Assembly: GCA_007376345.1 (NCBI GenBank)
Contig: VMGA01000001.1
Location: 61,747-125,746, forward strand
Source: Microgenomates group bacterium Gr01-1014_16
GTDB lineage: Bacteria > Patescibacteriota > Microgenomatia > CAZETR01 > Amesbacteraceae
DNA length: 64,000 bases
Reading direction: 5' to 3'
Part shown: piece after piece, positions 1 through 64,000 of the stretch
Position numbering within the stretch: position 1 is the stretch's first letter
Layout: every line of letters begins with the position of its first letter
Position numbers and translations under genes: made by a program
The notes under the pieces: model-generated
Databases searched by the model: none
Told to the model about the DNA's origin: nothing
The model's input: only the letters and a program-made list of their open reading frames with translations

Positions 1-301
1 TAATGTCGTCAAATATTGTGACATAGTCCACGCCTTCGATTCCTGCTACTGTTTCCGCTCGGTCTTTTTCTCCAATGATAGGGCGACTTGGTCCTTTGTA
101 ACTTTTGACTGATTGGTCACTATTTACTAGAATAAAGAGTACGTCTCCTTGTCTTTTCGCCTCTTGGATCGACTTGATATGACCAACGTGAATAATGTCA
201 AAACTGCCGTTACAAGTAACGATCTTTTTCCCTTGGTTTTTAAGTTGTCGTGCCAGGACGATTAATTTTTTCAGTGAAATTACTTTTTGACTTAGATACA
301 T
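1..301 (-). CDS. Partial CDS at the window edge, running off the 5' end of the window. D-beta-D-heptose-1-phosphate adenylyltransferase, i.e. HldE/RfaE domain II (cytidylyltransferase-like).
   Basis: The minus-strand translation from the ATG at 301..299 reads MYLSQKVISLKKLIVLARQLKNQGKKIVTCNGSFDIIHVGHIKSIQEAKRQGDVLFILVNSDQSVKSYKGPSRPIIGEKDRAETVAGIEGVDYVTIFDDI. It carries an HxGH nucleotidyltransferase motif (FDIIHVGH). The ORF track does not list it because it runs off the window. Confidence 0.6.
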   Translation of the reverse strand, partial: MYLSQKVISLKKLIVLARQLKNQGKKIVTCNGSFDIIHVGHIKSIQEAKRQGDVLFILVNSDQSVKSYKGPSRPIIGEKDRAETVAGIEGVDYVTIFDDI

Positions 302-311
302 ATTTGTAGCT

Positions 312-320
312 AATTGTAGC
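312..320 (-). promoter_or_regulatory. Putative extended -10 promoter (TGCTACAAT on the minus strand) driving the leftward adenylyltransferase gene.
   Basis: The reverse complement of attgtagca is tgctacaat (TGnTAnAAT), 10 nt upstream of the ATG at 301. A mirror-image copy at 341..349 drives the divergent rightward gene. Confidence 0.4.
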
Positions 321-340
321 ATTTGGTTTACTATTATTCG

Positions 341-349
341 TGCTACAAT
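341..349 (+). promoter_or_regulatory. Putative extended -10 promoter (TGCTACAAT) for the heptose kinase gene, giving a near-leaderless transcript.
   Basis: tgctacaat at 341..349 sits 8 nt upstream of the ATG at 358. It is an inverted copy of the element at 312..320. Confidence 0.4.
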
Positions 350-357
350 CCCTTCAA

Positions 358-1359
358 ATGAAGTTGTCAATACTTGAAAAAGAGAGGCTGTTTAGAATAA
401 TAGATAAGTTTTCTGATCAAAAAATTGTGGTTTTAGGGGATCTCATGCTGGATCGATATTTATGGTCTAAAGTAGACCGAATTTCTCCAGAGGCTCCAGT
501 TCCTATAGCTAAAATCGAAAATGAAACTCTTGTCCCTGGAGGTGCTGCCAATACTGTTTACAACCTGGCCAGTTTAGACGTTAAAGTTGAAGCAGTTGGT
601 CTTATTGGGAAAGACTTTGCTGGTGAGGAACTTGCACGAATTTTGACAAATAAAAATATTGGACTCTCGGGTTTAATAATTGATGAGAATCGTACCACTA
701 CTCTTAAAACTCGTGTGATGGCAGGTAACCATCAAATGATTAGGTTTGATTATGAAGATACAAGAGAGGTTAGCCCTAAACTTGAAGGTAAGTTGTTGTC
801 TGCTGTTGGTGAGTGTCTAAAAGATGCCACAATACTAATAATCTCTGATTATTCAAAGGGTTTGATTTCGAGTCGTTTTGCACATCGTGTAATTGCATTG
901 GTGAAAAAAAAGAGGATTAAAGTTCTGGTTGACCCAACTCCACAAAGTTTCAACAAATATAAACACTCTTACCTCGTAAAGCCCAATAAAAAGGAGGCTG
1001 AAACAATTGTTGACGAACGTATGGCTTCTGACTATTCTAATCTTGGCAGTATAGGACGAAAGATGATCAATAAACTAAAGACTGAAGTTTCATTCATTAC
1101 GCTGGGTGAGGATGGGATCGCTGTAATAGATTCGTCTAATAACATTTTCCGTATTCCTGCTTCTAGCCGCGATGTCTATGATGTTTCTGGTGCAGGCGAC
1201 ACTACCATGGCGGCGTTGGCAGCAAGCCTATCTGCAGGAGCAAATCTCAAAAGATCTGCAATTCTGGCGAACTTGTGCGCGGGAATAGTGGTGGGCAAAC
1301 TGGGTACGGCTACTTGCTCACGTCAAGAATTAAGAAATGGCGTTCGAGAACAGATATGA
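358..1359 (+). CDS. D-glycero-beta-D-manno-heptose-7-phosphate kinase, i.e. HldE/RfaE domain I (PfkB carbohydrate kinase family).
   Basis: N-terminal stretch: KIVVLGDLMLDRYLWSKVDRISPEAPVPI...GGAANTVYNLA. C-terminal stretch: DVSGAGDTTMAALAASL. This is the RfaE kinase-domain architecture. The track ORF starts at a GTG at 340, but the ATG at 358 behind the TGCTACAAT -10 box is preferred. The stop overlaps the next gene in an ATGA. Confidence 0.7.
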   Translation: MKLSILEKERLFRIIDKFSDQKIVVLGDLMLDRYLWSKVDRISPEAPVPIAKIENETLVPGGAANTVYNLASLDVKVEAVGLIGKDFAGEELARILTNKNIGLSGLIIDENRTTTLKTRVMAGNHQMIRFDYEDTREVSPKLEGKLLSAVGECLKDATILIISDYSKGLISSRFAHRVIALVKKKRIKVLVDPTPQSFNKYKHSYLVKPNKKEAETIVDERMASDYSNLGSIGRKMINKLKTEVSFITLGEDGIAVIDSSNNIFRIPASSRDVYDVSGAGDTTMAALAASLSAGANLKRSAILANLCAGIVVGKLGTATCSRQELRNGVREQI

Positions 1360-2411
1360 AAATTCTTGTTTTGTGTTTACCGGCAATTGGTGACGGATTG
1401 ATGATAACTCCCATGATTAGAGTATTGCGTAAGAGATTTCCTAATGCTGAAATAGACGTGGCTTGCATGATGGGTGGGGTCCAGTATGTATTTAAAAACA
1501 ATCCATACATTAGCCAAGTTCACTTTTTATCTATTTACACAAAAAATTGGGTTCGGGGAATTTTCCAAATATTATCCTTGAGGAAAAGAAAATATGACGT
1601 GTCAATTTTGTCTTTTCCGTCTTATAGAAGGGAATACCATTGGGTTCAGGCTGTAATTGGAGCAAAGAAAAGTATCGCCCACTTGTTCTCTACGGGGTAT
1701 TGGTTGGAGTTCAACTTTCTAAACACTGATTTGGTGGCTGTTGATGAAGCTAGCCATAATGTAATTAATAATCTCAATCTTACCTATGCTTTGGACATCG
1801 ATTGGCGAAAATATTTAGAGGAAAAGAATGTCAGATATGACCTAAAACTTGATACTTTGGATATCGATTTTGGCAAAGACTACGTTAAGAGACTTGGCTG
1901 GTCAAATAAAAAAATCGTGGCTATTCATCCCGGGTCAACCAATTCGCCGGCTGCTTTACTACGACGCTGGCCTTCTGACAGATACGCACAAGTGGCTCGG
2001 TATCTAATTCGAAAAAATTATAAAGTGATAATATTTGCGGGACCTGAAGAGAAAGAAGTCGGAAATGAATTAGAGCGTTTTGTGCACAGTAAGCAGTGCC
2101 ATCTGGTGGACAACGTCAATTTTAACCAGAGTTTGGGCATTTTGAACCAAATGGATCTTTTGGTTTGCAACGATAACGGATTTGGGCATTTGGCAAACGC
2201 GCTAGGAAAGGAGATTGTGACACTGTGGGCTTCGACTAATGATAAGTGGAGTTTGCCAATTAACAAAAAACTGGTCACCCTTGTACGAGCCCCAAAGTTC
2301 ATTCCCTGGTATCGGTATATCTTAAAACGATCTATACCAAAGGGGGTTAGTGGCGGTATGGAGCAAATACAAGTAAAAGAGGTAATCGAAGCTATAGAGA
2401 AGACTCTATAA
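1356..2411 (+). CDS. GT9-family glycosyltransferase (heptosyltransferase-like, RfaF/WaaC fold).
   Basis: MKILVLCLPAIGDGLMITPMIRVLRKRFPNAEIDVAC is a typical GT9 N-terminus, and the C-terminal region contains IHPGS...LVCNDNGFGHLANALGKEIV. The start is taken at the internal ATG at 1356, which overlaps the kinase stop in an ATGA. Confidence 0.7.
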   Translation: MKILVLCLPAIGDGLMITPMIRVLRKRFPNAEIDVACMMGGVQYVFKNNPYISQVHFLSIYTKNWVRGIFQILSLRKRKYDVSILSFPSYRREYHWVQAVIGAKKSIAHLFSTGYWLEFNFLNTDLVAVDEASHNVINNLNLTYALDIDWRKYLEEKNVRYDLKLDTLDIDFGKDYVKRLGWSNKKIVAIHPGSTNSPAALLRRWPSDRYAQVARYLIRKNYKVIIFAGPEEKEVGNELERFVHSKQCHLVDNVNFNQSLGILNQMDLLVCNDNGFGHLANALGKEIVTLWASTNDKWSLPINKKLVTLVRAPKFIPWYRYILKRSIPKGVSGGMEQIQVKEVIEAIEKTL

Positions 2412-2949
2412 GTTCGCAGAGAGTGTGAATGATTACCAGGTGGACTTCCTGGATAAGAGGGGTTTTGTTTGAAGGAATAATTAAATTGATGTTGCAGAGG
2501 TTTTTGAGTTTACCTCCATTACCTGTTAAAGATATGGTTTTAACTTGGAGTGATTTGGCTGCTTTAGCGGCGGCTAAAATATTGGGAGAGTTGCCACTAG
2601 TGCTGATACAGAAGAGCACGTCCCCTTGTTTTGCAACAGCCTCCACCTGGCGAGAGAATACTTTATCGAATCCGTAGTCGTTGGCTATGGCCGTAAGGGC
2701 CGACGTGTCTGTGGTCAGAGCAATCGCGGGCATGGCCTTGCGTTCTTTTTGATACCGGCCGACCAGTTCGGCGGCGAAATGTTGAGACTGGGCGGCACTG
2801 CCGCCGTTGCCGCAAATCAGAAGTTTGCCGCCGGATTTGAATGTTTGAGTTATCAACTTGGCCGCTTGACTGATGGGAATGCGGAGTTTGGGAAGTGATT
2901 GTTTAATCAACTTACTCGAAGCGGTGAAATGATCGTCAATGTTTCGCAT
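2392..2949 (-). CDS. gmhA: Phosphoheptose isomerase GmhA (SIS domain; sedoheptulose-7-phosphate isomerase).
   Basis: KLLICGNGGSAAQSQHFAAELVGRY...VLFCISTSGNSPNILAAAKAAK is the canonical GmhA SIS-domain signature. Length is 185 aa. Confidence 0.8.
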   Translation of the reverse strand: MRNIDDHFTASSKLIKQSLPKLRIPISQAAKLITQTFKSGGKLLICGNGGSAAQSQHFAAELVGRYQKERKAMPAIALTTDTSALTAIANDYGFDKVFSRQVEAVAKQGDVLFCISTSGNSPNILAAAKAAKSLQVKTISLTGNGGKLKNLCNINLIIPSNKTPLIQEVHLVIIHTLCELIESSL

Positions 2950-3682
2950 AAATGCGTAACCAAAATTCGTCTATTTTTAACAATGGCAAAATGACCAGGA
3001 CTATATTAACTCCAAACTGGGGAATTGGCCATTGGCTAATAAAGAACTTGGATTTGAAGTTGTTTCTTTGCAAGATTTTCAAAATAGTCGATAGCTTATT
3101 TTCCGGGTTATAAGGGCTCGCGTGAAATTCTAGGATGATGTTTTTGACGAGCTTTAATTTTGGTTCAATTTCTTGAACGACTTCTGTTTCCGCGCCTTCG
3201 ATATCCAGCTTAAGTAAATCTATGGGAGAGTTTATATATTGGGAAAGCCTTACCGTTGAGACCTGGACTATTTTAGATCTGTCTTTATTGTTAAATTTGT
3301 TTTCTTTTAACGAATCTCCCCTGCCCCAAGGATTCTGTTTAGACTTACTGGTATAGAAATTCATTTTCCCGGATTTCCCTGCCACAGCCGCGTTTACCAA
3401 TTTAATCCGGGTTAGTTTGTTTTGAGATATGTTTTTCTTAAGTAGTGCAAAGCTTCTAGGACTTGGTTCGAAGGCGGTAATTTTAGCTTTGGGAAATTGT
3501 TCTTTAAAATACAAAACCGTTTCGCCTATTAACGCGCCGACGTCGAAGATTACCGGGTCCGGTTTGGAAGTATCAAACTGATAATAATTTTTCTCGTACA
3601 GTTCTTTTAACATTTCGTCCAACTCGGCTTCGTTGACGTAAGAAATTAACCAGTTTTTAAATTTTTTTGTTTTTATTCCCAT
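2936..3682 (-). CDS. FkbM-family SAM-dependent methyltransferase.
   Basis: FDVGALIGETVLYF...AFEPSPRSFALLKKNI...KLDIEGAETEV is the FkbM (Methyltransf_21) pattern. Confidence 0.7.
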   Translation of the reverse strand: MGIKTKKFKNWLISYVNEAELDEMLKELYEKNYYQFDTSKPDPVIFDVGALIGETVLYFKEQFPKAKITAFEPSPRSFALLKKNISQNKLTRIKLVNAAVAGKSGKMNFYTSKSKQNPWGRGDSLKENKFNNKDRSKIVQVSTVRLSQYINSPIDLLKLDIEGAETEVVQEIEPKLKLVKNIILEFHASPYNPENKLSTILKILQRNNFKSKFFISQWPIPQFGVNIVLVILPLLKIDEFWLRIYAKH

Positions 3683-5667
3683 GGCCAGACTTTGAAGGTT
3701 ACGTTAATTTCGTAATTCCCCAATTTGTCAACTTGCCAGCCATTGGCGTAGCCATTAATGGCAAAGTGCTTGTCGATAACGTCGTCGTTCACTTTTGCAA
3801 TCCAAAGATTGTTATAGTTTACTGAAAGGATAAGAATATATGGACTATTGGCATCCTTAATTTGATATCGGTAGTGAACTGGTGAAATCTTGACAATTTT
3901 ATAAGAGGGGAGTTTCGATTGATCTATCTTGGGTATGTCTGCCGATAATGAAAAGGCTGAAAGCAACGGAACAAAATCATCACTGTTTACCACCATATTC
4001 AATCCCTTCTTCAATGTTTCAGTTTCTGTCACGTCATTACTTAGATATCCCCAGTTTACGGGTACGTTCTCAAGTTGATATACATCTAAAGCGTCGAATG
4101 ATTTAGTGAGCCGAACATTCCTCATTTGAGAAGTCATTGATTTTGTTCCTTCATAGTTCTCTTGCACTGTAGGCCCTGGCAACACGTCCTTGTGCACCAC
4201 TAGCGTATCTATGACAAAAAATTGCATAAGACGATATAGATTTGGCGACCGTAAATACTGATATATAAGAAGATATGGATCGTCGGGGAAAAAATACGTT
4301 TTTGATACTGAGGGACGACTAAATGTGTACTCTGAAGGTTCATCTCCAGAATATCCCCAATTGTATTCCAGCCCAGAACCGTGGAGGAAAGGAAGGTGAA
4401 GCAGGCGAAAACCTGATTGACCATTTAAATAACCATCAGCAAGCTGGTAGGATGGAGGCACTTCAATCTGATACCCCGCAAAAACTTGGGCCGTCCACAT
4501 TGGTCTTAATAACACAAAACATACTACAAACAAAATTAGGGTTCTAATATGGCGAGATGGTATCTTAGACAGGCCCAAAGCTACCAGCAAGGAGTAGGGA
4601 AGCAAAAAAACAACCCCAAGTTTTTCATATGGATTTCGTAAAACCATAGTGACTGGTATACTATTAAACAACCAGGAGTAAAAACTTTCTCCCCACGGCG
4701 GATTTGCTCCCTTGACTAAAAACCAGCCCGCAATTAACCATATTAAAAGAACCTTTCCACTTGGAAGTCTCAGTGTGGATACTATTCCGACAACTAACAA
4801 TCCCACCAACAGTTGACTAATAAGGTGTATCGGCCTAGAAGAAAAATACTTTGACCAAATAGCCCGGGAACCAAAATAGTAATTTTGCTTTAGCAGTACA
4901 ATTTCCGAGTTGGGATAATACTTGCTCACGTCTATAAGAGACCTTACATTAGAAGAAACATTAAGATAACGAGTATAGGAATTTTCCTTAGTAGCCAAAG
5001 GATACCACCACCAAGCTGCGGCAAGAAGCCAGACGGTAACTCCAATAATTGCGGGGACAAATTTCCGATACTTTAGCCACACGATTCCCGCTGGTATCCA
5101 CAATGAAAAAATCGATGCTGTTAGGGTGAAAATATTTGAAAAAATGAAAGAAGTTATAACCAGTAATAGTAGGTACCTTACCTTTCTTGAATCCAACCAT
5201 CTAATCCAGATGTAAAGAAATAGAGGGAGATAAGACCATAGAAAAAATAATTCGTATATAAAGCGCTGGAGAACTTGAGAAAGGAAAAACAGATTAAATA
5301 CATAGAGGAGTGCAGCATACAATCTGGTATATTCTCTTGAATTGGGCAACAATAACTTAGTTAGTGGAGGAATTGATATTAGGGGGGTCACAATCAATAA
5401 AAAGAAAATTAACTGTTGAATCCTTAAACTAGGGACCCTTAAAGCGCTTAAGCCAGCTGAGAAGGCGTGTAGAGAAATTCGGGGTAACGAGAAGGGGTTG
5501 GTAAAGCCCAAGCCGGTATCTTGCCACAGATAAGATGACATTTGAAATGTTCTAATTGGGTTATAAAAGGGTAGTCCCTCCTCGGCATGAGCCAACATCT
5601 TCTTCTGACCGAACCAAATTGAGGTTAGAAGAAAAGGGACAATGAAAATTAATATCAATTTCTTCAT
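3673..5667 (-). CDS. Large polytopic membrane protein with a C-terminal soluble domain. Possibly a GT-C-type glycosyltransferase (arabinofuranosyl/mannosyl-transferase-like).
   Basis: 664 aa. The N-terminal two-thirds are hydrophobic (many W/F/L-rich helices). The roughly 200-aa C-terminus is hydrophilic. No diagnostic motif was recognised. Confidence 0.45.
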   Translation of the reverse strand: MKKLILIFIVPFLLTSIWFGQKKMLAHAEEGLPFYNPIRTFQMSSYLWQDTGLGFTNPFSLPRISLHAFSAGLSALRVPSLRIQQLIFFLLIVTPLISIPPLTKLLLPNSREYTRLYAALLYVFNLFFLSQVLQRFIYELFFLWSYLPLFLYIWIRWLDSRKVRYLLLLVITSFIFSNIFTLTASIFSLWIPAGIVWLKYRKFVPAIIGVTVWLLAAAWWWYPLATKENSYTRYLNVSSNVRSLIDVSKYYPNSEIVLLKQNYYFGSRAIWSKYFSSRPIHLISQLLVGLLVVGIVSTLRLPSGKVLLIWLIAGWFLVKGANPPWGESFYSWLFNSIPVTMVLRNPYEKLGVVFLLPYSLLVALGLSKIPSRHIRTLILFVVCFVLLRPMWTAQVFAGYQIEVPPSYQLADGYLNGQSGFRLLHLPFLHGSGLEYNWGYSGDEPSEYTFSRPSVSKTYFFPDDPYLLIYQYLRSPNLYRLMQFFVIDTLVVHKDVLPGPTVQENYEGTKSMTSQMRNVRLTKSFDALDVYQLENVPVNWGYLSNDVTETETLKKGLNMVVNSDDFVPLLSAFSLSADIPKIDQSKLPSYKIVKISPVHYRYQIKDANSPYILILSVNYNNLWIAKVNDDVIDKHFAINGYANGWQVDKLGNYEINVTFKVWPWE

Positions 5668-6692
5668 TATCTAATAAAAGACGCCATTGAATCAGTCAAA
5701 AATTTTCTGCCTGTTTTATTTTTTATAAATGTATACAGAAGTATATCAGTTACGGAAATTGTAACTATCGGTTCCATCAAGAGCGCCCAATCTTTGTGCT
5801 TTAAAAATCGGATAAAACCTCTGATGGCCGCTGGGAGGAAAAGATTGGCATAGATAACAAATAGAATCAATTTGAATACTTCGTATTTGTTGTGAGTGTC
5901 TAATATCGTATAGTGATATTTTCCATATTCGGGAAAGTAATGCATACCCATATTGCGGACACGCTTTTGTAATAAATGCCTGAAGTTTGTAGCATGATAG
6001 TGATAGTATCCGGGTTCGGGGACATAAGCAAAATAAGGATAACCGGATCGTACGCAGTTAATAATAAAATCATGATCAAAATAATCTTTTGTAGTCCAGT
6101 TAGGTGTCTTTTTTAAATACTTAATTCTATAAAACATGCGAGCTGCTGGGGGTATTTTTTTGTCCTCATATTTGCAAACAATGTAATTTTTCTTCGTCTC
6201 TATAAAGGTTTTTTCTACAGGTAAAAAGAGGAACTCCAATAGTGGGTCGCACTGACAATAGTGATAAGAAAGAAACCTGGGAACCCAGTGCATATTTTTA
6301 TGCGGATATTCCTTGGTGAACGTTGCCACCAGTCGGTCATCGTCAAGAAGTGGTTTAATCATGCTTTTAATAAAGTTTCTACCTCTTAAAACAATATCCT
6401 GTTCTAGATAAAAAACGAACTCTCCTTGAACTTTGTGAAGACCTTTCACCCAGTTTGAGTACAACCCTCCTTCCGGATGAAGAAAAACCCTTGCACCAAA
6501 CTTTCTTGCAATATTTACACTTTCGTCAGTGGATCCATTATCAACTACAACCACATCAATAAGGTTAGTTGAATATATCTGACTCTTGACCGATTCCAAA
6601 CAGTTCCGAACACCCTCCCCACCATTTAAGGTGAGTAAAATAAACGACACCTTTGGCCATTTAATCATCATGTCATGTGGCATATTTAACAA
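5667..6692 (-). CDS. GT2-family glycosyltransferase (GT-A fold).
   Basis: VSFILLTLNGGEGVRNCLESV...VVVVDNGSTDES is a typical GT2 N-terminal signature. Confidence 0.7.
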   Translation of the reverse strand: MLNMPHDMMIKWPKVSFILLTLNGGEGVRNCLESVKSQIYSTNLIDVVVVDNGSTDESVNIARKFGARVFLHPEGGLYSNWVKGLHKVQGEFVFYLEQDIVLRGRNFIKSMIKPLLDDDRLVATFTKEYPHKNMHWVPRFLSYHYCQCDPLLEFLFLPVEKTFIETKKNYIVCKYEDKKIPPAARMFYRIKYLKKTPNWTTKDYFDHDFIINCVRSGYPYFAYVPEPGYYHYHATNFRHLLQKRVRNMGMHYFPEYGKYHYTILDTHNKYEVFKLILFVIYANLFLPAAIRGFIRFLKHKDWALLMEPIVTISVTDILLYTFIKNKTGRKFLTDSMASFIR

Positions 6693-50204: not shown

Positions 50205-50608
50205 TAAATTGAATTCCATATTTTTGTTAGTTCTTTTTTGGCAGTATTAAATTTAATGCACCATAAATAATAATAGGAAGAAAGATATTTGGCTCTTTTT
50301 TCGATTTCAAATTTTTCTCCGTGTATTTTTCTAACCTTCATTTCTGCTTTGATTGCTGCCAGTTCTTCATTTAGACGAAAAGTGTTCGAACACCAATAAT
50401 TGAGAGGGTATTTAATATTGCCGTATGAACTGGATCTCTTAATATGGGTTATTTCGTGTTCAAGTAGAGAAATTGTTATGGGTTTAGGATTCGGATTTTG
50501 AAAATCTTGATATATATCTCGGCGGAGATATATTTTTCCTAGAAAGGCGGATCCCCGGAACAAATTAAGAGGGCTCATGTGTACTTGTAATCCTTTGTAT
50601 GAATTCAT
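50204..50608 (-). CDS. Small hypothetical protein with an HExxH motif (possible zinc-metallopeptidase-like fold).
   Basis: LLEHEITHIKR contains HEITH. 134 aa. No TM segments. Confidence 0.35.
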   Translation of the reverse strand: MNSYKGLQVHMSPLNLFRGSAFLGKIYLRRDIYQDFQNPNPKPITISLLEHEITHIKRSSSYGNIKYPLNYWCSNTFRLNEELAAIKAEMKVRKIHGEKFEIEKRAKYLSSYYYLWCIKFNTAKKELTKIWNSI

Positions 50609-57324: not shown

Positions 57325-58042
57325 GCCACATCAGATAGTGCTTTAGCGGGCCGTTGTACCAGATGCTGGATTGCCATAAGTATTTTTGGGCAAGAGGGGA
57401 TTTTTTTGAACTTTGGCCGTGTTCGTGAATAATTGTGATATTTGGATTGAAGTAGACTTTGAGACCGGTGACGCGGATGCGGAGACAATAATCCAGATCT
57501 TCGTAGTACATAAAGACTTTCTCTGTCATCAAACCAATTTTATTTAGTGTTTGTTTGGGAAAAAACATGCAAGCTCCTGATATCGCATTTACTATTGATG
57601 GCGACGAAGGAGAATATTTCTGTGAAGATTTAAATAGAGACGGTTCGGGGAAGACGGAGCCTTGGGGTGTGCCATCTGGGTCAACAAATTTGGGCCCCAT
57701 GACGCCTATGTCCGAATGGGACTTGGTAAATTCCAGGGCTTTGGTAAAGAAATCTTTGGGGATACGGGCGTCTGGGTTTAGCAGCAAAATATAGTCTCCC
57801 CTGCTCTGGCGCAAACCAATATTAATAGCCTTGGGAAAGCCGATGTTATTAAAATTGGCTACGACTTTGACTCCTGCAAATGATTTGGCAATCTTAACTG
57901 AGTCATCCGTGGAGGCATTATCGATAACAAATACTTCCAGATTCGGATATTTGGCGGCAAACACCGACTCCAGACAGCGCTTTAATGACTGCGCCACATT
58001 CCAGCTGACAATGATTACACTTATTTTCGGTTCCTTGCTCAT
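57263..58042 (-). CDS. GT2-family glycosyltransferase.
   Basis: ISVIIVSWNVAQSLKRCLESV...VFVIDNASTDDS...LLLNPDA. Its 3' end overlaps the convergent GT2 gene by 62 nt. Confidence 0.7.
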   Translation of the reverse strand: MSKEPKISVIIVSWNVAQSLKRCLESVFAAKYPNLEVFVIDNASTDDSVKIAKSFAGVKVVANFNNIGFPKAINIGLRQSRGDYILLLNPDARIPKDFFTKALEFTKSHSDIGVMGPKFVDPDGTPQGSVFPEPSLFKSSQKYSPSSPSIVNAISGACMFFPKQTLNKIGLMTEKVFMYYEDLDYCLRIRVTGLKVYFNPNITIIHEHGQSSKKSPLAQKYLWQSSIWYNGPLKHYLMWLISWSGQKFQKLLGGKNSIT

Positions 58043-58054: not shown

Positions 58055-58114
58055 TACCATACTACAGAGTATGGTAAATAATAAATTAATTCTAATACTA
58101 GGTAGTATTGTAAT
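58055..58114. promoter_or_regulatory. Palindromic element family, copies 5 (type B, 58055..58076) and 6 (type A, 58092..58114), between the DedA stop and the GT2 start at 58042.
   Basis: Type B is taccatact-acag-agtatggta. Type A is ctaatacta-gg-tagtattgtaat. On the minus strand type A gives TTACAA-17nt-ATTAAT, promoter-like, with the type-B palindrome sitting between that and the ATG. Confidence 0.5.
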
Positions 58115-58740
58115 TATTGTTTATTAGCTTTTATTAACTTTCTGAATAAGATGTACATTAACAAAAATATCGAACTAATTGAGAAAGTAAGAAGTATAAA
58201 CGAGAGGGGATTGGGTGCAAATCTAGATAGGTATGACAAGAGTAATGTACCGGGGATCGCGGCGATTGAAGATGTAATAATGTATGTGGAAAATTTCATT
58301 GAAGTAAATCCGGCGGCGTATGATACAAGATCATGAAAGTGACCCAAAAAGATTCTGAAACTTAGCAGCGAAAGTATTCCGTACTCTTTAGCGTATTCAT
58401 CAATTTTGTTTATTCCGGATTTACCAACAAGTTTTGCCACTAAAGACCGCCCCCAAATCCTGGCGATCCAGAAGTTGGTGAAGAAGCTTATATAAGCTGC
58501 TATTGTGGCATAAATAATGACATTTTGACCGAATAAAACGTGGCCAGCGAATAATGCTGGCATGCCGCTTAGGGGGGCAATTATATAAGAAGTGAGAGAA
58601 AGGAGAATGAATATTACCGGAGCCAGGACTCCAAACTGACTGATGAAAGCGCGGACGGTATCTTGGGAAATCGAAAGACTAACTGCGAAAAATATCAAAA
58701 AAATAAATCCTCCTATTATATAAGGCACGAATTTTTTCAT
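58114..58740 (-). CDS. DedA/TVP38/SNARE-associated family membrane protein.
   Basis: 208 aa, about 6 TM helices. FRIFLGHFHDLVSYAAGFT resembles the DedA re-entrant-loop signature region. Confidence 0.6.
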   Translation of the reverse strand: MKKFVPYIIGGFIFLIFFAVSLSISQDTVRAFISQFGVLAPVIFILLSLTSYIIAPLSGMPALFAGHVLFGQNVIIYATIAAYISFFTNFWIARIWGRSLVAKLVGKSGINKIDEYAKEYGILSLLSFRIFLGHFHDLVSYAAGFTSMKFSTYIITSSIAAIPGTLLLSYLSRFAPNPLSFILLTFSISSIFLLMYILFRKLIKANKQ

Positions 58741-59513
58741 AACATGCGACCGAGAGCCATTAAAGTTGGTATGAGATAGCCTGGGTGGTGAAAGATCCTA
58801 GATATTAGATGAGAGATGTGAGAGGGATAGTATTTTGAGTCGAGATTTTTCCAGTGACATAATAAATAATTACGGTCTTTGATTAATTGAAGTGACTTTT
58901 TAGAGTAAGTTGCATTGAAAGTGGATTCGGGTGCAGCATGGGTGACTTTGGCTTTGGGATCCCAGATGATTTCATATCCTCTGTTGCGTGCCCTCCAGCT
59001 AATGTCCAGGTCTTCATAATAACCCGGTGAAAATTTAGGATCAAAGCCTCCCAAGGCATCCCAGTAGGATTTACGAAATGCTGCACTTCCGCCTGAAGCC
59101 CAAAACGATGAATGGATTTTGTCATCTAATTTACCGTTTGAGAATTCCAAAAAACCGTTTTTGATCTTAGCGTCAGCCCAAGAGCGGCCTTGTTCGTTGA
59201 AGGTGACGGCAAAGACTTTGGGGTCTTTAAAATGAGGCAGGGTGTATTTGAGTAAGTCTTTGTCCGGCTTAACGTCCTGGTTTAACAAGATGACAATATC
59301 GCCGGAAGCGGCGGAGAAGCCGTCATTGACGGACGAGGGAAAGCCCAGGTTTTTGGGGTGACGGATGAGCTTCACACCTACGAGGCGTACAGGCTGGGTT
59401 GAGGCATCGTCGACAATGATTATTTCGTCGGCGCCCAAAGCTTGAACCGAGGGCAAGTTAGCATCCAGAAATTTTTGGCCGTTGAAGGCCGGAATAACGA
59501 CCGAAGTGGTCAT
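58737..59513 (-). CDS. GT2-family glycosyltransferase.
   Basis: TSVVIPAFNGQKFLDANLPSV...IIIVDDAST...ILLNQDV. Confidence 0.7.
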   Translation of the reverse strand: MTTSVVIPAFNGQKFLDANLPSVQALGADEIIIVDDASTQPVRLVGVKLIRHPKNLGFPSSVNDGFSAASGDIVILLNQDVKPDKDLLKYTLPHFKDPKVFAVTFNEQGRSWADAKIKNGFLEFSNGKLDDKIHSSFWASGGSAAFRKSYWDALGGFDPKFSPGYYEDLDISWRARNRGYEIIWDPKAKVTHAAPESTFNATYSKKSLQLIKDRNYLLCHWKNLDSKYYPSHISHLISRIFHHPGYLIPTLMALGRML

Positions 59514-59530: not shown

Positions 59531-61027
59531 CTAGTTGCGGCGGGTACGATTCTGGACGGTAATTTCACCGAATTGTTTTTGATGGTTGAAAGTGGAGAAA
59601 TACTTTTCTTTGTCCAAAACTTTATCGATTATGTCTGTAGGAATCCCTTGGGGGGGCTCGATAATGACGAATACCTGGCGGGTGGACAAGGAAAGGGAAA
59701 GATTGTTTCCGGGTTGGTCAATTTGATTTTCGCCATGCCAATACGGCAAATAACCGTATTTGGATTTACCGTACCAGTTGAATAAATACGACCAGGTGGT
59801 ATTGATGTAGAGCGGTGAGGTAACGGAGTTAAAAGTAAAAGGCTCTCCTTTGGCTTCGGTGTACATAAAATCAATGGCGTCCAGCTCGTGGCGCAGGGTC
59901 ATGGTTTTTTGGATGGCAAATTCAGTCAGACCTTGGGAATTTTGTTTTTTGATATACGTTAGGTTGGATAAAACTATGAGAAAAATCAGAATAGCTTTTA
60001 GACTCTGTGACTTGACCCGGGAAATAAAATAGACAACAAATATAATTACCAGTAACCCTAATCCGGCATGGATGTAGGGAGTGCTGATGCCCCCGACTAT
60101 TAATGCTGGAGCAAAAGATATTAAACCAAATGAAAAGATTGCCCACCAATCCGCACGTGGTTTGGTAAAGATATAAGCGGCAATGAAGCCTATCATGGCA
60201 ATAGTGGGGTGTGTGGGAAAAGAGTTGAGGCTGATGAGACGTTTGAATTGAAATAAAGCTGAATCAAAAATTGTTAAATAATTTACGTTAAGTCGGGAAT
60301 AAGTTGAATGATTGAATATTAAGTTGGCTGGGCCGTTTCGGCTGGGAAAGCCAAACTTTATTTCTGAAACTAACATCGACGAGGTTGTAACTGTAACTGT
60401 AAACAGTAACAGGAAAAATATTTTTCCGGATAGATTCAGTTTTTTAAGCAAAATTAGAACAAAGATGACGAGGGAGTGATAGATAAAAATAAAATTTGAT
60501 TGGAAACTAAGACCTAAACCAATACCAGCAAGCAGAACACCGTGGGGTTTGCGATTTTGCCATTGCCAAAGGCCGAAATATAAAACCGGGACAAAGAGGA
60601 CGGCTAAGGCTGGATTGGATAAATAGATGGCGTATTGAGTTTGTTCGTAAGAGACGGCAGTTAGGAGCGAGGTTAACGTGGCTAGCGGCTTAGACTTGAA
60701 AAGCCGGAGGCCGATAAAATACGCCAGAAATATGGCGAATGAATTAATAAAAGACAGCCAAACAGCAGCGATTATTGGACTCCCCCGCCCCAGCCAATAA
60801 CCCGGAGCAGAGACATAGTAATATAGAACGCCGTGGAAAAAATCCCGGGTGGAAGTGGGTGGACCCTGGATTTTGATATCGCCGTGGAGAAGCTCTTGAA
60901 TGGTGTATGCGTCGCGAGCCTGATCGTAACTAAACATTAAATTTCCCTGCGGCAAATACCGGATTCTGATAAAAAAACCCAAAATAAAGATGACAAAAAC
61001 CAGCCAATGTTTCCTAAGAACGTTCAT
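59531..61027 (-). CDS. GT-C-fold polytopic membrane glycosyltransferase (distant ArnT/PMT-like).
   Basis: 498 aa, at least 11 TM helices. The first loop NLMFSYDQARDAYTIQELLHG carries an acidic D/E motif in the position of the PMT/ArnT DE loop. Confidence 0.5.
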   Translation of the reverse strand: MNVLRKHWLVFVIFILGFFIRIRYLPQGNLMFSYDQARDAYTIQELLHGDIKIQGPPTSTRDFFHGVLYYYVSAPGYWLGRGSPIIAAVWLSFINSFAIFLAYFIGLRLFKSKPLATLTSLLTAVSYEQTQYAIYLSNPALAVLFVPVLYFGLWQWQNRKPHGVLLAGIGLGLSFQSNFIFIYHSLVIFVLILLKKLNLSGKIFFLLLFTVTVTTSSMLVSEIKFGFPSRNGPANLIFNHSTYSRLNVNYLTIFDSALFQFKRLISLNSFPTHPTIAMIGFIAAYIFTKPRADWWAIFSFGLISFAPALIVGGISTPYIHAGLGLLVIIFVVYFISRVKSQSLKAILIFLIVLSNLTYIKKQNSQGLTEFAIQKTMTLRHELDAIDFMYTEAKGEPFTFNSVTSPLYINTTWSYLFNWYGKSKYGYLPYWHGENQIDQPGNNLSLSLSTRQVFVIIEPPQGIPTDIIDKVLDKEKYFSTFNHQKQFGEITVQNRTRRN

Positions 61028-62168
61028 GGGAAAGAAGCATCATTAACCCTAAACTGGTGCCGGCCAAAGCGGCTCTGACAAGTGAAACGTTGGCATCGGT
61101 TAACCAACCGCGGAGAGATAAATTTAGGCCAAACAGGCCGAAGTTGAGAGATGAGTCGAATGAAAAAATGATGAGTAGGTGACAAAGTAACAGAGTGACA
61201 AGAAGGGGCGGGGATTTGCGGACGTGGATAAAAGTAAGAATTAAAAACGGCGTGATCCAGGTAAACCACTGGGGATGAAAATGGGTAAGAGAATAAAAGA
61301 GCAAAAGAACAGACATGGGCCAAGCCCAATCGGGAAGAAGTTTCGGACGGAAATAATTGAGCCAAAATAGCAGGACGAGGCCGACGAAGAAGAGAGGTAA
61401 GTATTGGGATCCGGAAACGGCGATTTTGGCGTAGGAAATTTTGTCGGTTTGGCTAGCAAGTAACGCGTATTGTCTGAATCCAATTGACGGTAAATAGGGC
61501 AAGATCAATAGTCCGTAAGTAAGTAGACCAGTAGTTATGTTTTTGAGTTTAGAACCGGGAATGAAAGGGAGGAAAAAAATGGGAAAAGGTTTGAACCCGG
61601 CGGCAATTCCTATAAAAACCGGCGCCAGTTGGGGTCGCAGCAAAGCAAGTAGTATAAACAGGGCAATAAAGATGTCGAATTGGGCCAACATATAGGCGCT
61701 GTAGAGAGTAAGGGGGTTAAAAATCCATAGAATTGATCCGAGAAAACGGTGCTTTGGCTCCAAAAGACGATAGATAACTAAAAGGCCAACGAAGTCGGCT
61801 ACTAAATAGGGAAACTTGAGGAGAAACAGGAGCCAGGACAGTTGGGGATGGCCGGCAGTTTGCCCGATGTCGAGAATAAGAGTGTGAAAAAGTTGTTGGG
61901 GATAAACGGGGTAGAGAAAAAAATTAAATATGGCGTGGGTCAAGTAGGCTAAAGGGGGATAGGCAAATATGTCGTCACGGTAAAGCACGACCCAAGGATC
62001 TGTACGGGGCTGTAACCGCAGGTAATCATATAAAGATAAGATTTGACCTTTCTGGGCGATAAGATAAGCGGCCAGGTTGTGGCCGCGGATATCCGGATGG
62101 ACGGTATACATCATCAAACCCAATCTAATTGCTAAACCGATGAGTAGCCAGGGAAGAAGTTTCTTCAT
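61014..62168 (-). CDS. GT-C-fold membrane glycosyltransferase, DUF2029/GT87-like.
   Basis: YPPLAYLTHAIF and IGIAAGFKPFPIFFLPF resemble DUF2029-type mannosyltransferase motifs. About 10 TM helices. Confidence 0.5.
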   Translation of the reverse strand: MKKLLPWLLIGLAIRLGLMMYTVHPDIRGHNLAAYLIAQKGQILSLYDYLRLQPRTDPWVVLYRDDIFAYPPLAYLTHAIFNFFLYPVYPQQLFHTLILDIGQTAGHPQLSWLLFLLKFPYLVADFVGLLVIYRLLEPKHRFLGSILWIFNPLTLYSAYMLAQFDIFIALFILLALLRPQLAPVFIGIAAGFKPFPIFFLPFIPGSKLKNITTGLLTYGLLILPYLPSIGFRQYALLASQTDKISYAKIAVSGSQYLPLFFVGLVLLFWLNYFRPKLLPDWAWPMSVLLLFYSLTHFHPQWFTWITPFLILTFIHVRKSPPLLVTLLLCHLLIIFSFDSSLNFGLFGLNLSLRGWLTDANVSLVRAALAGTSLGLMMLLSHERS

Positions 62169-63211
62169 ATCAGCATTAAGAACCTGCGGTTAAATTCGCT
62201 TATGTCAAATATTTTACTCTTGGTAATGGCCGCACTGGAAATAGTTGTTAGTTGTTGGCCCTGCCTGCCGGCAGGCAGGTTGTCAGTTGTTAGTTCTATT
62301 GTAATTTTTTCTAGTTCTTCCGGAGAATTCCACAAATACCCATTGGTTTTGTCATCTACAATCTCTTTGTGGCCGCCGAGATTAGTGATAATGGGCACTG
62401 CTCCGGCGGACATGGCTTCGACAACAGTAATTCCGAAGTGTTCGGTTTGAATCGCTTTGTCCGCTGAATAACCGCTGGCTGACCAAAATATTTTTCCTAT
62501 GGCGCACAAATTCTGTATTTGGGAAAAAGAGGGATTGATAACAAACTCGATATTTGATCCGTCTGAAAGTTTTTTGAGATGTTGTATATCCTTTTCCGTC
62601 GATCCCACGCCCATGCCCCCGGCTAAAATTAATTTCCAGCCTTTTAATTTAAGTTTTTTGAATGACTTAATTAGTTGGTCGTGCCCTTTCCGCTGAGTGA
62701 GATTAGAAAATCGTCCAATGTAGAAAATCAGGTTTTCTTTTTTTCCTGCCGTAAATTTTGATGTATCAATAGGGGGATAAATTACGGAACTGTTTATATT
62801 GAATTCTTTGTCGACAGTTTTTTTTGTAAATTCTGAATTGGAAACAAATTTATAAAACCTGGATTTAATAAAGTTTAAAGTTGATCTTCCTCCGATGTCT
62901 TTAAATGGCATTTGGAAATGAACTATCGTGTTGCGAGCGAAAGATGTGGGAAGGGAACCGTCGGAAAGCCAAAAGATGAGTTGATAGTTGTGGGTTGTGA
63001 GCTGTGGGACATAATTTGCGAGGGAAATATCAATTCCGAAGCGGTCGAGGATTTGAGAAGAAATGTTTTTGGGCCAAGTGATATCTACCTGCCACCCCTC
63101 ATCAAGCAAAAGCTTAACAAATGAGGCGGTATAGCGCTCCCCTCCTCCCAACGAGTCCCAATATGGATTATGAATTCCTGCCCGCCTACCGGCGGGTAAA
63201 CCCTTTTTCAT
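62165..63211 (-). CDS. GT4-family glycosyltransferase.
   Basis: The N-terminal stretch IHNPYWDSLGGGERY is a GGxER-like motif. The C-terminus contains GITVVEAMSAGAVPIITNLGGHKEIV. Contains two GC-rich palindromes that both encode LPAGR. Confidence 0.7.
   Translation of the reverse strand: MKKGLPAGRRAGIHNPYWDSLGGGERYTASFVKLLLDEGWQVDITWPKNISSQILDRFGIDISLANYVPQLTTHNYQLIFWLSDGSLPTSFARNTIVHFQMPFKDIGGRSTLNFIKSRFYKFVSNSEFTKKTVDKEFNINSSVIYPPIDTSKFTAGKKENLIFYIGRFSNLTQRKGHDQLIKSFKKLKLKGWKLILAGGMGVGSTEKDIQHLKKLSDGSNIEFVINPSFSQIQNLCAIGKIFWSASGYSADKAIQTEHFGITVVEAMSAGAVPIITNLGGHKEIVDDKTNGYLWNSPEELEKITIELTTDNLPAGRQGQQLTTISSAAITKSKIFDISEFNRRFLMLI
62260..62279. repeat. Perfect 20-bp GC-rich palindrome, cctgcctgccggcaggcagg, inside the GT4 coding sequence.
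   Basis: Read directly. The sequence is its own reverse complement, in an otherwise AT-rich gene. A related GC-rich dyad, cccgcc-tacc-ggcggg, sits at about 63181..63196. Confidence 0.8.
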
Positions 63212-63938
63212 GCTGCATTTCCCATAAACGCGCGTAAATAACGAACATGTTGAAGATTTGGAATATACCGTCGATCACACCCCTCGGGCCGTCGCGCCAA
63301 GCTTGAAGTTTGACAAAGCGCAGCCAGAATTCGGTGGCCATGACGCGAAGAAATCTCCACCAAACAATTGGTGGATGATTGACTTCTACTCTTAACTTGG
63401 CTTCGTATTCAATAAAATCCAACGTCTTTTCCAGCATGGATGAGAGATCACGATGAGAATGGTGAATTAGTTCATGGTTCATGGTTCGTAGTTGCCCGTC
63501 AAAAATAGGTTGCTCATGAAGCTCGCCTTGATATTCTTTAAGAAACTTTTTGTAAAAAAGTCTGATAACTTTGTCGTTACCCCAGCCGCCGAAACGCATT
63601 TCCTTGCCTAAATAAATATTTTTTCTAGGAATCTGATAAACGCCGGGCACGGTGGTATTTTTTATTTCTAACCGCAGTTGTGGAGATACACGTTCGTCGG
63701 CATCGACATATAAAATCCAGTCACCTGTGGCGGCTTTGAGGCCCGCATTGCGAAATTCGGAGTAATTTGTGCTTTTAGTTTTGATTATTTTGGCGCCAAA
63801 CGACTTGGCAATTTCATTAGTTTTATCGGTATTACCCGAATCAACCACAATAATTTCATCCGCTAGGTCCTTCACGGAAATTAAACAATCCCCAATCATT
63901 TCTTCTTCATTTTTGGTAATAATAATGACGCTAAGCAT
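63186..63938 (-). CDS. GT2-family glycosyltransferase, a paralog of the gene at 39215..39991.
   Basis: LSVIIITKNEEEMIGDCLISV...IIVVDSGNTDKTNEIAKSFGAKII...LYVDADE. Confidence 0.7.
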   Translation of the reverse strand: MLSVIIITKNEEEMIGDCLISVKDLADEIIVVDSGNTDKTNEIAKSFGAKIIKTKSTNYSEFRNAGLKAATGDWILYVDADERVSPQLRLEIKNTTVPGVYQIPRKNIYLGKEMRFGGWGNDKVIRLFYKKFLKEYQGELHEQPIFDGQLRTMNHELIHHSHRDLSSMLEKTLDFIEYEAKLRVEVNHPPIVWWRFLRVMATEFWLRFVKLQAWRDGPRGVIDGIFQIFNMFVIYARLWEMQHEKGFTRR

Positions 63939-64000
63939 ATGAGCCCTTGCCGAAGTTCATGAGATAAAAGTCCAGGACTCCGCGGCGCTGCCAGGGGCGG

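Follow-up and report, generated by a model that had tools for sequence, protein, structure and literature searches.

What is made, and by which route, by a bacterium that reserves 77 kb or more of a reduced genome, and ~40 glycosyltransferases, for surface glycans? The question is raised by a stretch of 64,000 nucleotides, hereafter the window, from Microgenomates group bacterium Gr01-1014_16 (contig VMGA01000001.1, positions 61,747 to 125,746 of the forward strand). Protein matches show the window to be the reverse complement of positions 5440-69439 of ENA contig ERZ27284378:k139_12380 (139,123 bp), and three of its proteins bear locus tags of this bacterium (G01um101416_69, _79 and _96). The host, which lives in groundwater, belongs to the Patescibacteria group, also known as Candidate Phyla Radiation (CPR), with Candidatus Amesbacteria as its nearest relative. 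These bacteria account for a large share of bacterial diversity, combine genomes of at most ~1 Mb with a life attached to other cells, and their surface chemistry is almost uncharted. A preliminary description, made from the DNA letters alone, had read the whole window as a single glycosylation super-locus serving one highly complex glycan or several glycans. Our analysis points, as the probable explanation, to a chromosomal glycosylation island using lipid-linked sugars, in which a glycan would be built or decorated outside the membrane by glycosyltransferases of the GT-C fold. Our confidence is high for the gene content, the taxonomy and the GT-C assignments, moderate for the mechanism, and low for the identity of the product.

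Gene content and the polytopic membrane proteins

Gene content was established from gene calls combined with precomputed Pfam matches, Pfam and NCBIfam scans and a hydropathy count. Of the 61 genes called in the window, 50 lie on the minus strand; coding coverage is 99.0%, and over the 60 gene junctions the median is -4 nt and the widest gap 144 nt. The dense packing reported earlier is thus confirmed, whereas the statement that genes mostly overlap by 4 nt was too strong: the overlap is exactly 4 nt at 13 of the 60 junctions, and overlaps of any length occur at 34. More than half of the genes (32 of 61) encode glycosyltransferases, 19 of the Leloir type and 13 of the GT-C type, a share for which chance is not a sensible explanation. 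According to hidden Markov models (HMMs), the Leloir set comprises one GT9 (g2), 12 GT2 (g6, g14, g20, g24, g30, g31, g39, g53, g54, g55, g57 and g61) and 6 GT4-type members of the Glycos_transf_1 family (g8, g13, g28, g29, g38 and g60). The three classes are those named in the preliminary description, and its count of about 21 becomes 19. Far from failing on most of its glycosyltransferase calls, the HMMs support these 19 enzymes, and the 13 polytopic proteins are predicted to be glycosyltransferases as well.

No housekeeping function interrupts the window, as had been claimed: a tRNA scan and an Rfam scan of it were both empty, and no replication, transcription or translation gene was found within the 64 kb. 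The genes without an evident glycan role are those for a NUDIX hydrolase, a major facilitator superfamily (MFS) transporter and a tetratricopeptide repeat (TPR) protein, together with g33, g34 and a four-gene insert, g46-g49. Pfam returned nothing at E<=0.1 for g5, g15, g22, g32, g33, g34, g43, g48, g49, g58 and g59. The island itself exceeds the window, spanning at least window positions -7799 to +69439 (~77 kb), with its right edge not reached. As the flanks were read to at most 10 kb past the window and the ENA contig ends shortly after the downstream genes, this size is a lower bound. Over these 77 kb or more, 24 Leloir and 16 GT-C glycosyltransferases were counted.

Once the MFS transporter g36, the DedA protein g56 and the GtrA protein g18 are left aside, exactly 13 polytopic proteins remain in the window, the number previously given, and all 13 are predicted with high confidence to be GT-C-fold glycosyltransferases. 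The prediction draws on Pfam matches, paralogy, profile-profile links, the AftD matches of g5 homologues, a structure model of g15 and a conserved acidic pair. Five of the proteins (g41, g42, g43, g50 and g51) are paralogues with 30-37% mutual identity; three of these (g41, g50 and g51) match PMT_2 or PMT in Pfam, and a D31-E32 pair just past the first transmembrane (TM) helix is invariant in all five. Using alignments built from related loci, HHalign linked g44, g45, g37, g58 and g59 to GT-C families with probabilities of 89-98%, and for g42-g44, g58, g59 and g22 the range of such links was 89-100%. The 13 proteins have 4-10 TM helices at a strict hydropathy threshold. At a laxer threshold g5, g15 and g22 show 9-10 TM helices, followed by a soluble tail of 130-270 amino acids (aa).

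Sequence searches of the PDB with g5, g15 and g22 gave nothing at E<=10, and the profile of the paralogue family gave only marginal matches, AglB and ArnT, so that fold prediction and profile-profile comparison were needed. The g15 family has 37 members and no Pfam match, and all members with an organism name come from Patescibacteria (Amesbacteria, Microgenomates). The AlphaFold model of g15 is of high quality (predicted local distance difference test (pLDDT) 90.4, predicted template-modelling score (pTM) 0.91), and its top 17 PDB matches are all GT-C proteins, namely ArnT, yeast and human STT3, PglB, AglB and DPY19, unrelated transporters appearing only after them. A search with g22 retrieved 89 representatives at E<=1e-3; aligned with the 60 best of these, g22 matched the g15 family with an HHalign probability of 100% (E 1e-43) and the PMT_2 paralogues with 95-98%. 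As for g5, the PF11847 model (GT-C_AftD) was matched by 10 of its 18 database homologues, with a best E of 1e-21, and not by g5 itself. The check for an acidic motif covered the five paralogues and the g15 and g5 families. In the g15 family G32 and D33 are invariant and D34 is more than 90% conserved, and in the g5 family E29 is invariant and E30 more than 90% conserved. An acidic pair past the first TM helix is thus conserved in three independent families. A reading of g5, g15 and g22 as Wzy polymerases was rejected on the GT-C evidence.

Lineage-conserved core and strain-variable modules

Relatives of the locus were found by scanning one genome per GTDB species with an alignment of the five window paralogues. 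At least 595 related stretches were recovered, the best in two Candidatus Amesbacteria metagenome-assembled genomes (MAGs) with 70-71% identity and the next best in Woese-, Collier-, Shapiro-, Gottesman-, Levy-, Chisholm- and Daviesbacteria. All 61 proteins were compared by tblastn with 80 related loci, taking 10 kb on each side of the g41 homologue. A common core emerged in the order: tandem GT-C paralogues, g39 (GT2), g38 (GT4), g37 (PIG-V-like) and g31 (GT2), with g32 and GT4 genes often next. Amesbacteria share this arrangement with Woese-, Collier-, Shapiro-, Gottesman-, Chisholm- and Daviesbacteria. Among the 80 loci, g39 was found in 65, g38 in 58, g37 in 43 and g31 in 39, and tandem paralogues number five or more in 35 of the 45 loci that extend over 20 kb or more. 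Since the best matches of g43, g42 and g41 follow one another in the same order in many genomes, the duplications are old. The core is clearly vertically conserved.

Several of the MAGs with a syntenic array (L009, L010, L011, L014 and others) are titled 'uncultured Gammaproteobacteria' or 'Pseudomonadales', one of them being a 615-kb 'chromosome' (OZ246397.1). These titles look wrong, synteny, identity and size all indicating Patescibacteria.

The genes without counterpart near the core of other MAGs are g1-g25, g33-g36, g40, g46-g49 and most of g52-g60. In two close relatives (L087 and L088) the variable modules are recognisable in rearranged versions, each module combining a sugar-nucleotide route with GT2 and GT4 enzymes, methyltransferases and a GT-C of its own. 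L088 (GCA_038055335.1, JBBUIM010000010.1, positions 1-4571) keeps the trio GmhA, Methyltransf_21 and AftD-like GT-C that is found in window positions 1-5667. There, the trio adjoins a fusion of a GHMP kinase with a nucleoside triphosphate (NTP) transferase, in the place where the window has HldA and the HldC-GmhB fusion. We take the GHMP-kinase/NTP-transferase fusion to be a mark of the GDP-heptose route, as in Gram-positive S-layer glycans. One type of heptose activation, ADP or GDP, seems to have replaced the other at this position.

The Amesbacteria locus L008 carries a homologue of g52 that adjoins the g51 orthologue. A homologue of g24, 46% identical, also lies near the core of L008. The insert g46-g49 (47758-50578) breaks the GT-C array of the window and is absent from L008, where the orthologues of g45 and g50 abut; a role in phosphorylating sugars or glycans is possible, as is a recent origin by insertion. 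Core genes have a mean GC of 43.4% and a GC at third codon positions (GC3) of 46.9%, against 40.8% and 40.7% for the other genes. The lowest values of the window are those of g48 (34%) and g49 (32.5%), g10, g6 and g40 being at ~35-36%.

These comparisons show that the island is composite, with a lineage-conserved core and shuffled, strain-variable modules. What stands of the single super-locus is therefore the glycan content of the window throughout, and not the notion of one uniform pathway. Between one complex glycan and several, the conserved core and the shuffled modules make several glycans or decorations the better option.

The gene that often follows the core, g32, defines a family of its own, with 619 database homologues, mostly from Patescibacteria, sharing 43-80% identity among the 120 best listed. 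The query itself has no Pfam match, and a few homologues match DUF3863. A search of PDB and Pfam profiles from a 5-sequence g32 alignment was uninformative, and the fold was resolved by an AlphaFold model (pLDDT 92) predicting a CE4-type deacetylase barrel with extra C-terminal domains. Homologues of g32 are ~15-20 residues longer at the N-terminus, which may point to a wrongly called start codon or N-terminal anchor in g32.

Sugar supply, lipid carriers and competing explanations

At least four sugar-nucleotide routes had been proposed, and at least four are present: ADP-heptose, GDP-L-galactose or L-gulose by way of GDP-mannose 3,5-epimerase, a GDP-6-deoxyhexose pair, and a nucleotidyltransferase/4,6-dehydratase branch of NDP-hexose type with an aminotransferase. 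For ADP-heptose, a route named in the preliminary description, GmhA (g3), HldA (g1) and the GmhB domain of the fusion at the left end of the window score above the NCBIfam cut-offs, and the GT9 enzyme g2 aligns end to end with WaaF. The HldC adenylyltransferase domain of the fusion falls slightly below its cut-off. None of the eight sugar-nucleotide short-chain dehydrogenases/reductases (SDRs) of the window reaches the heptose_epim model of the HldD 6-epimerase (best 72.6 against a cut-off of 274.6), so that the heptose product may be D,D-heptose. The GDP-mannose-3,5-epimerase-like SDR is g12, which aligns over residues 4-323 with 8sg0, a solved plant enzyme, with 337 bits and E 1.5e-99, its next-best family reaching only 110 bits. 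Of the proposed GDP-fucose route, the family-level assignment stands and the label itself is not established, g26 and g27 being below the cut-offs. On the gmd model g27 scores 168 against 415; its closest solved relative is the bifunctional reductase/dehydratase Rmd (2pk3), and it is also closer to GDP-heptose 4,6-dehydratase than to canonical Gmd. The product of g26 and g27 is likely to be a GDP-6-deoxy sugar. The fourth branch, a nucleotidyltransferase and a 4,6-dehydratase-like SDR (g16, g17), is accompanied by DegT and RmlD-like tailoring enzymes.

The RmlD-like reductase (g7), the DegT aminotransferase (g9) and the nucleotidyltransferase (g16) were all recovered at family level. Four methyltransferase domains are present (g4, g19, g23 and the N-terminus of g24), and the amidotransferase g52 passes the AsnB model. 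The radical-SAM label of g21 is not established: its cysteine motif is present and its PF04055 score lies below the gathering score. No SDR could be given a substrate specificity by NCBIfam, every one scoring below the equivalog cut-offs.

Several of the window's proteins bear on how sugars could cross the membrane on a lipid. The alignment of g53 to ArnC is full-length (positions 7-311 of 316), g53 having ~2 TM helices by hydropathy, and the nearest solved relatives of g31 are dolichol-phosphate-mannose synthase (DPMS), GtrB and ArnC. Together with these polyprenyl-phosphate GT2s, the window encodes a GtrA-family protein, g18, and GT-Cs (g15 and g22) beside it, a GtrA/GT-C neighbourhood that recurs in L087 and L088. 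In Gram-positive bacteria a GT2, a GtrA-type protein and a GT-C form three-component systems (PMC8035078, PMC5836110), whose logic is established for the extracytoplasmic decoration of O-antigen and teichoic acids (PMC8035078, PMC5836110, PMC7389260). DedA proteins such as g56 include undecaprenyl-phosphate translocases (PMC9876793), a role that is not common to all DedA subfamilies (PMC10127716).

The preliminary description had advised looking for Wzx, Wzy or ABC machinery and for an S-layer or pilin substrate, and neither appeared in the window or the flanks read. No Pfam family of Wzx, Wzy, Wzz, O-antigen ligase or priming phosphoglycosyltransferase occurs in the 61 genes or the flanks read, nor does an ABC transporter domain of a Wzm/Wzt exporter or a pilin or S-layer family. 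Every polytopic protein of the window is accounted for as GT-C, MFS, DedA or GtrA. Since this canonical machinery is missing while ArnC/DPMS-like GT2s, GtrA and DedA proteins are present, we infer a mechanism based on lipid-linked sugars. A polyprenyl-phosphate-linked donor for the GT-Cs would have indirect support from the co-location of these same proteins.

The island could then work as follows. Activated sugars would be made by cytoplasmic enzymes, and GT4 and GT2 enzymes would build a lipid-linked primer on the cytoplasmic side of the membrane, or else serve other acceptors. The GtrB/ArnC/DPM1-type enzymes g53 and g31 would load single sugars onto polyprenyl phosphate, and GtrA-type or other proteins would flip the lipid-linked sugars. 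At the outer face, the GT-Cs would extend and decorate either surface proteins or a glycan anchored in the membrane or wall, and the DedA protein g56 would return the free carrier lipid. The conserved core would thereby provide a lineage-wide envelope glycoconjugate, and the variable modules strain-specific decorations with heptose, 6-deoxy, amino and O-methyl sugars. Candidate acceptors are a lipoglycan, a wall polymer and surface proteins.

Several points weigh against this probable scheme. A priming enzyme and an exporter of lipid-linked oligosaccharides were not found in the window or the flanks read, which leaves the 19 Leloir enzymes without a demonstrated route to the outside; both may lie elsewhere in the genome. 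Only two GT2s resemble lipid-phosphate sugar synthases, against 13-16 GT-Cs; mycobacteria serve a comparable number of GT-Cs with two lipid donors. The roles given to the DedA and GtrA proteins come from family membership alone, the donors and acceptors of the enzymes are all putative, and the sugar-nucleotide enzymes are nearly all below the NCBIfam equivalog cut-offs. The Foldseek TM-scores of the g15 model are modest (0.3-0.45), though every top match is a GT-C.

A different role for the array would be the O-glycosylation of secreted proteins (S-layer, pilins or host-contact proteins) by the tandem PMT_2-like GT-Cs, the Leloir and sugar-nucleotide genes supplying the sugars. The Pfam families PMT and PMT_2 are those of protein-O-mannosyltransferases, a paralogue just past the window end matches PF02366 (PMT) with 7e-12, and the invariant loop-1 D-E pair is also typical of PMTs. 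Surface proteins and pili are abundantly encoded in CPR genomes (PMC6744442). However, PF13231 also takes in lipid and glycan modifiers of the ArnT type, the only PDB matches of the family profile are marginal (AglB and ArnT), and no substrate gene was recognised in the window and the flanks read. The array is moreover fixed beside PIG-V/GT87-like and AftD-like GT-Cs, a GT4 and a deacetylase-fold protein, a setting that resembles glycolipid or lipoglycan pathways, and we regard protein O-glycosylation as unlikely. The cooperation of all genes on one very complex heteropolymer repeat unit is improbable: contiguity, dense packing and the dominance of one strand would suit it, but ~15 strand switches imply many transcription units and no repeat-unit polymerase or flippase lies in the window. 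Part of the island is conserved across Microgenomates, the remainder is not found at the cores of other MAGs, and the variable modules of close relatives differ in order and content, down to a GDP-heptose-type module in place of the ADP-heptose one.

The low GC of g48, g49, g10, g6 and g40 and the lower GC3 of non-core genes could be taken as traces of a recent horizontal acquisition or of a mobile element foreign to the native chromosome. The differences in composition are small, though, and come from a comparison within the window. This origin is very improbable; the mobile-element reading was rejected because dozens of Microgenomates MAGs, complete chromosomes among them, have the core in colinear order, and because neither an integrase or transposase nor a tRNA or repeat boundary turned up. 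Least credible of all is that the heptose route and the GT9 make a core like that of lipopolysaccharide on an outer membrane, the rest of the window being an O-antigen cluster. The ADP-heptose enzymes that pass equivalog cut-offs and the full-length alignment of g2 to WaaF fit such a core, whereas g2 scores below the heptosyltransferase cut-offs and a close relative has the GHMP-kinase/NTP-transferase fusion instead. CPR bacteria are also considered to lack a Gram-negative envelope (PMC6744442). The lipopolysaccharide reading was rejected on the score of g2 and on the lack of genes for lipid A, 3-deoxy-D-manno-octulosonic acid (Kdo), O-antigen ligase, Wzx, Wzy and Wzm/Wzt in the window and the flanks read.

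Extent of the island and comparison with known systems

Complete or single-scaffold genomes carrying related loci measure 0.6-1.09 Mb; set against them, the 77 kb or more of the island would amount to ~7-13% of a genome of lineage-typical size. Upstream of the window, going outward, lie the HldC-GmhB fusion, two methyltransferases, three GT4-type genes, a 741-aa protein and a 1052-aa membrane protein. The 741-aa protein is a homologue of g5 (HHalign 99%, with 'GGDD' past the first TM helix). Downstream of position 64000 are two GT2 genes, two close GT-C paralogues (496 and 524 aa) and a 201-aa GT-C fragment.

The start of the 1052-aa protein (L005, positions 1-859, ~8 kb upstream of position 1) comprises one TM helix, a 160-aa outer domain and further TM helices. 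The part read matches no family and is not linked to the GT-C profiles, and the protein could mark the edge of the island or be a substrate or partner. The 201-aa open reading frame (L006, positions 974-1579, ~5 kb past the window end) matches only residues ~200-360 of the GT-C paralogues (HHalign 96%) and is probably the remnant of a decayed paralogue. The plus strand of the window is G-rich nearly throughout, with a cumulative GC skew of +3.5 and negative skew only at 6-12 kb, despite the minus-strand location of most genes. This mismatch may come from the codon content of membrane proteins or from genes opposing the direction of replication. The genes of the window are listed in Table 1.

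Table 1. Genes of the 64-kb window in order of position, with predicted products and the matches on which they are based
Gene	Predicted product	Coordinates	Strand	Evidence
	HldC-GmhB fusion, 5' part (342 aa; remainder upstream of window)	1..322	-	GmhB NF006506 191.4 vs 178; rfaE_dom_II 154.7 vs 181.5; L005 7939-8967
g1	HldA	358..1359	+	TIGR02198 355.7 vs cut-off 345
g2	GT9 heptosyltransferase	1356..2411	+	Pfam Glyco_transf_9; heptosyltransferase II 104.8, below 134.6; WaaF 1psw full length, E 3e-16
g3	GmhA, sedoheptulose-7-phosphate isomerase	2392..2949	-	TIGR00441 225.9 vs 209.45
g4	Methyltransferase	2936..3682	-	Methyltransf_21
g5	AftD-like GT-C, 664 aa, ~10 TM + C-terminal domain	3673..5667	-	Homologues match PF11847
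g6	GT2	5667..6671	-	
g7	RmlD-like SDR reductase	6673..7581	-	TIGR01214 131 bits, below 224
g8	GT4-type (Glycos_transf_1)	7615..8769	-	
g9	DegT/PseC-like sugar aminotransferase	8741..9889	-	Pfam DegT; PseC 249.5 bits, below equivalog cut-off
g10	Short SDR, 260 aa	9899..10681	-	Conserved in relative L087
g11	Fcl-like SDR (3,5-epimerase/4-reductase type)	10685..11650	-	GDPFucSynFcl 226 bits, below 500
g12	GDP-mannose 3,5-epimerase	11647..12630	-	8sg0 and 2c59, 337/329 bits, full length
g13	GT4	12627..13721	-	
g14	GT2	13718..14551	-	
g15	GT-C, 586 aa, family without Pfam model	14580..16340	+	AlphaFold model vs PDB
g16	Sugar-1-phosphate nucleotidylyltransferase	16321..17100	-	Family level
g17	NDP-hexose 4,6-dehydratase-like SDR	17090..18130	-	TIGR01181 156.8, below 365
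g18	GtrA-family small membrane protein, candidate lipid-linked sugar flippase	18156..18560	-	PF04138 64.4 bits
g19	Methyltransferase	18705..19430	+	Methyltransf_21
g20	GT2, weak	19427..20212	+	PF00535 24.6 vs 23.3
g21	Putative radical-SAM-like protein	20194..21189	-	PF04055 21.2, below 29.5; CX3CX2C at residue 74
g22	GT-C, g15 branch	21248..22783	+	HHalign
g23	S-adenosylmethionine (SAM) methyltransferase	22774..23364	+	
g24	Methyltransferase-GT2 fusion	23317..24693	-	SAM-methyltransferase residues ~16-155; GT2 223-369
g25	SDR	24709..25731	+	Family level only
g26	Fcl-like SDR	25691..26629	-	298.5, below 500; 81% identical in Amesbacteria L008
g27	Rmd/Gmd-like GDP-sugar 4,6-dehydratase/reductase	26647..27618	-	2pk3 287 bits; 7us5 239; canonical Gmd ~150
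g28	GT4	27602..28678	-	
g29	GT4	28687..29799	-	
g30	GT2	29802..30806	-	
g31	Polyprenyl-phosphate glycosyltransferase-like GT2, core	30809..31621	-	DPMS 5mlz 1e-12, then GtrB, ArnC
g32	CE4-like deacetylase-fold protein + extra C-terminal domains	31650..33377	-	Model vs PDB: 3lm3 1e-12, then PgdA, CE4 enzymes
g33	Soluble protein	33367..34158	-	No family match
g34	Soluble protein	34184..34933	+	No family match
g35	TPR protein	34982..35932	-	
g36	MFS transporter	35955..37130	+	
g37	GT-C, PIG-V/GT87-like, core	37105..38232	-	PF04188 34.4 vs 22.4
g38	GT4, core	38229..39218	-	Nearest solved MshA 7qsg, 1.5e-14
g39	GT2, core	39215..39991	-	
g40	NUDIX hydrolase	39988..40395	-	
g41	GT-C, PMT_2/ArnT-like paralogue 1	40397..41998	-	D31-E32 invariant
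g42	GT-C paralogue 2	41995..43548	-	
g43	GT-C paralogue 3	43545..45065	-	
g44	Distant GT-C	45055..46560	-	PTPS_related weak; HHalign 89-95% to GT-C families
g45	GT-C, ALG6/ALG8- and GT87-like	46536..47768	-	PF03155 26.8 vs 25; GT87 21.9
g46	Ribokinase-like PfkB kinase, inserted module	47758..48696	-	234.8, below 299.65
g47	Phosphoenolpyruvate (PEP)-utilizers swivel domain protein, inserted module	48758..49078	-	96.2 bits
g48	364-aa protein, inserted module	49075..50169	-	Weak: NF004881 'PEP synthase' positions 594-752, E 4e-7
g49	124-aa protein, inserted module	50204..50578	-	No family match
g50	GT-C paralogue 4 (PMT_2)	50610..52115	-	
g51	GT-C paralogue 5 (PMT_2)	52115..53677	-	
g52	AsnB-type glutamine amidotransferase	53680..55488	-	TIGR01536 436.7 vs 267.1
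g53	ArnC/GtrB-type polyprenyl-phosphate glycosyltransferase (GT2 + C-terminal TM helices)	55492..56433	-	ArnC 164 bits
g54	GT2	56449..57324	+	
g55	GT2	57263..58042	-	
g56	DedA/VTT-domain protein, candidate polyprenyl-phosphate recycler	58114..58740	-	PF09335 61.3 bits
g57	GT2	58737..59513	-	
g58	Distant GT-C	59531..61027	-	HHalign 90-97% to paralogues, N-terminal ~190 residues (<=275 columns vs g42)
g59	Distant GT-C, related to g45	61014..62168	-	HHalign 97.6%, 320 columns
g60	GT4-type glycosyltransferase	62165..63211	-	
g61	GT2	63186..63938	-	

The component families of the island are all known, and so are large glycan clusters. What is unusual is their setting in a CPR host with a reduced genome, the dominance of GT-Cs, the conservation of the array and its neighbours across Microgenomates, and the absence of canonical export and polymerisation genes from the window. 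A complete ADP-heptose route with a GT9 is also unusual in a bacterium not expected to make lipopolysaccharide. By current understanding CPR bacteria have no outer membrane, and most of the families enriched in Microgenomates are hypothetical, with many membrane proteins among them that are not identified there as GT-C (PMC6744442). A search of full-text literature, outside which many subscription papers lie and which is no proof of novelty, found nothing linking Patescibacteria or Microgenomates with GT-C, mannosyltransferases or ADP-heptose. The size of the investment and the order-conserved tandem GT-C array point to an envelope glycoconjugate that is essential to the lineage yet variable between strains. 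Concrete candidates are offered by the putative polyprenyl-phosphate sugar synthase, the GT-C families without Pfam model and the 619-member deacetylase-fold family.

Among known systems, GtrA/GtrB/GtrC of enterobacterial O-antigen, CsbB/GtcA/YfhO of Bacillus and Listeria teichoic acids and ArnC/ArnT have all their component types represented in the window. Module g13-g20 has exactly the make-up of GtrABC-type systems, with sugar-nucleotide enzymes of its own. Unlike these systems, which make one decoration with one GT-C, the window has 13 GT-Cs and the island 16, of which five to seven are ancient tandem paralogues, and synthesis genes for a decorated polymer are not recognisable in the window. 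Large O-antigen and capsule clusters share with the island its size and density, its many GT2 and GT4 enzymes, SDRs, an aminotransferase and methyltransferases, and its strain variability; the rfb loci of Leptospira range from tens of kb up to ~100 kb. They differ in that GT-Cs dominate here, that the window has no Wzx, Wzy, Wzz, ABC exporter, priming phosphoglycosyltransferase or ligase, and that the host is presumed to have a single membrane.

The same logic of many GT-Cs and few lipid-linked sugars is found in the mycobacterial and corynebacterial machinery for lipomannan and lipoarabinomannan (LM/LAM) and arabinogalactan (PimA/B, Ppm1, PimE (GT87), MptA-C, EmbA-C and AftA-D), which likewise assembles a glycan outside the membrane on a primer from cytoplasmic GT4s. 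In number, the GT-Cs of the island compare with those encoded by an entire mycobacterium. Families common to both are AftD-like proteins (g5 and the 741-aa flank protein), GT87/PIG-V-like proteins (g37, g45 and g59), a GT4 (g38) and g31. In contrast with mycobacteria, the host belongs to a different phylum, its genome is about four to five times smaller and its GT-Cs all lie in one island. The island showed no Emb-type or decaprenyl-phosphoarabinose (DPA) genes, its heptose and GDP-L-galactose routes are foreign to the mycobacterial system, and the likeness is at superfamily level only. The glycosylphosphatidylinositol (GPI) anchor core (PIG-A GT4, PIG-L deacetylase, DPM1 and the GT-Cs PIG-M/V/B) and the mycothiol enzymes MshA/MshB offer another parallel, as the conserved core has an MshA-like GT4, a deacetylase fold, a DPM1-like GT2 and a PIG-V-family GT-C. 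The fold of g32, however, is CE4-like and not LmbE/PIG-L, the similarities are weak, and no inositol-lipid genes were seen. The likeness to the GPI core or to phosphatidylinositol mannosides (PIM) and LM would thus be an analogy of logic only. On this analogy we tentatively suggest, as a possibility short of even chances, that the core might make an undescribed envelope lipoglycan or wall glycopolymer that defines the Microgenomates surface and is assembled outside the membrane like mycobacterial LM/LAM or the GPI core, while the hypervariable modules (heptose, L-galactose, 6-deoxy, amino and O-methyl sugars) might form a serotype-like layer governing host and phage recognition.

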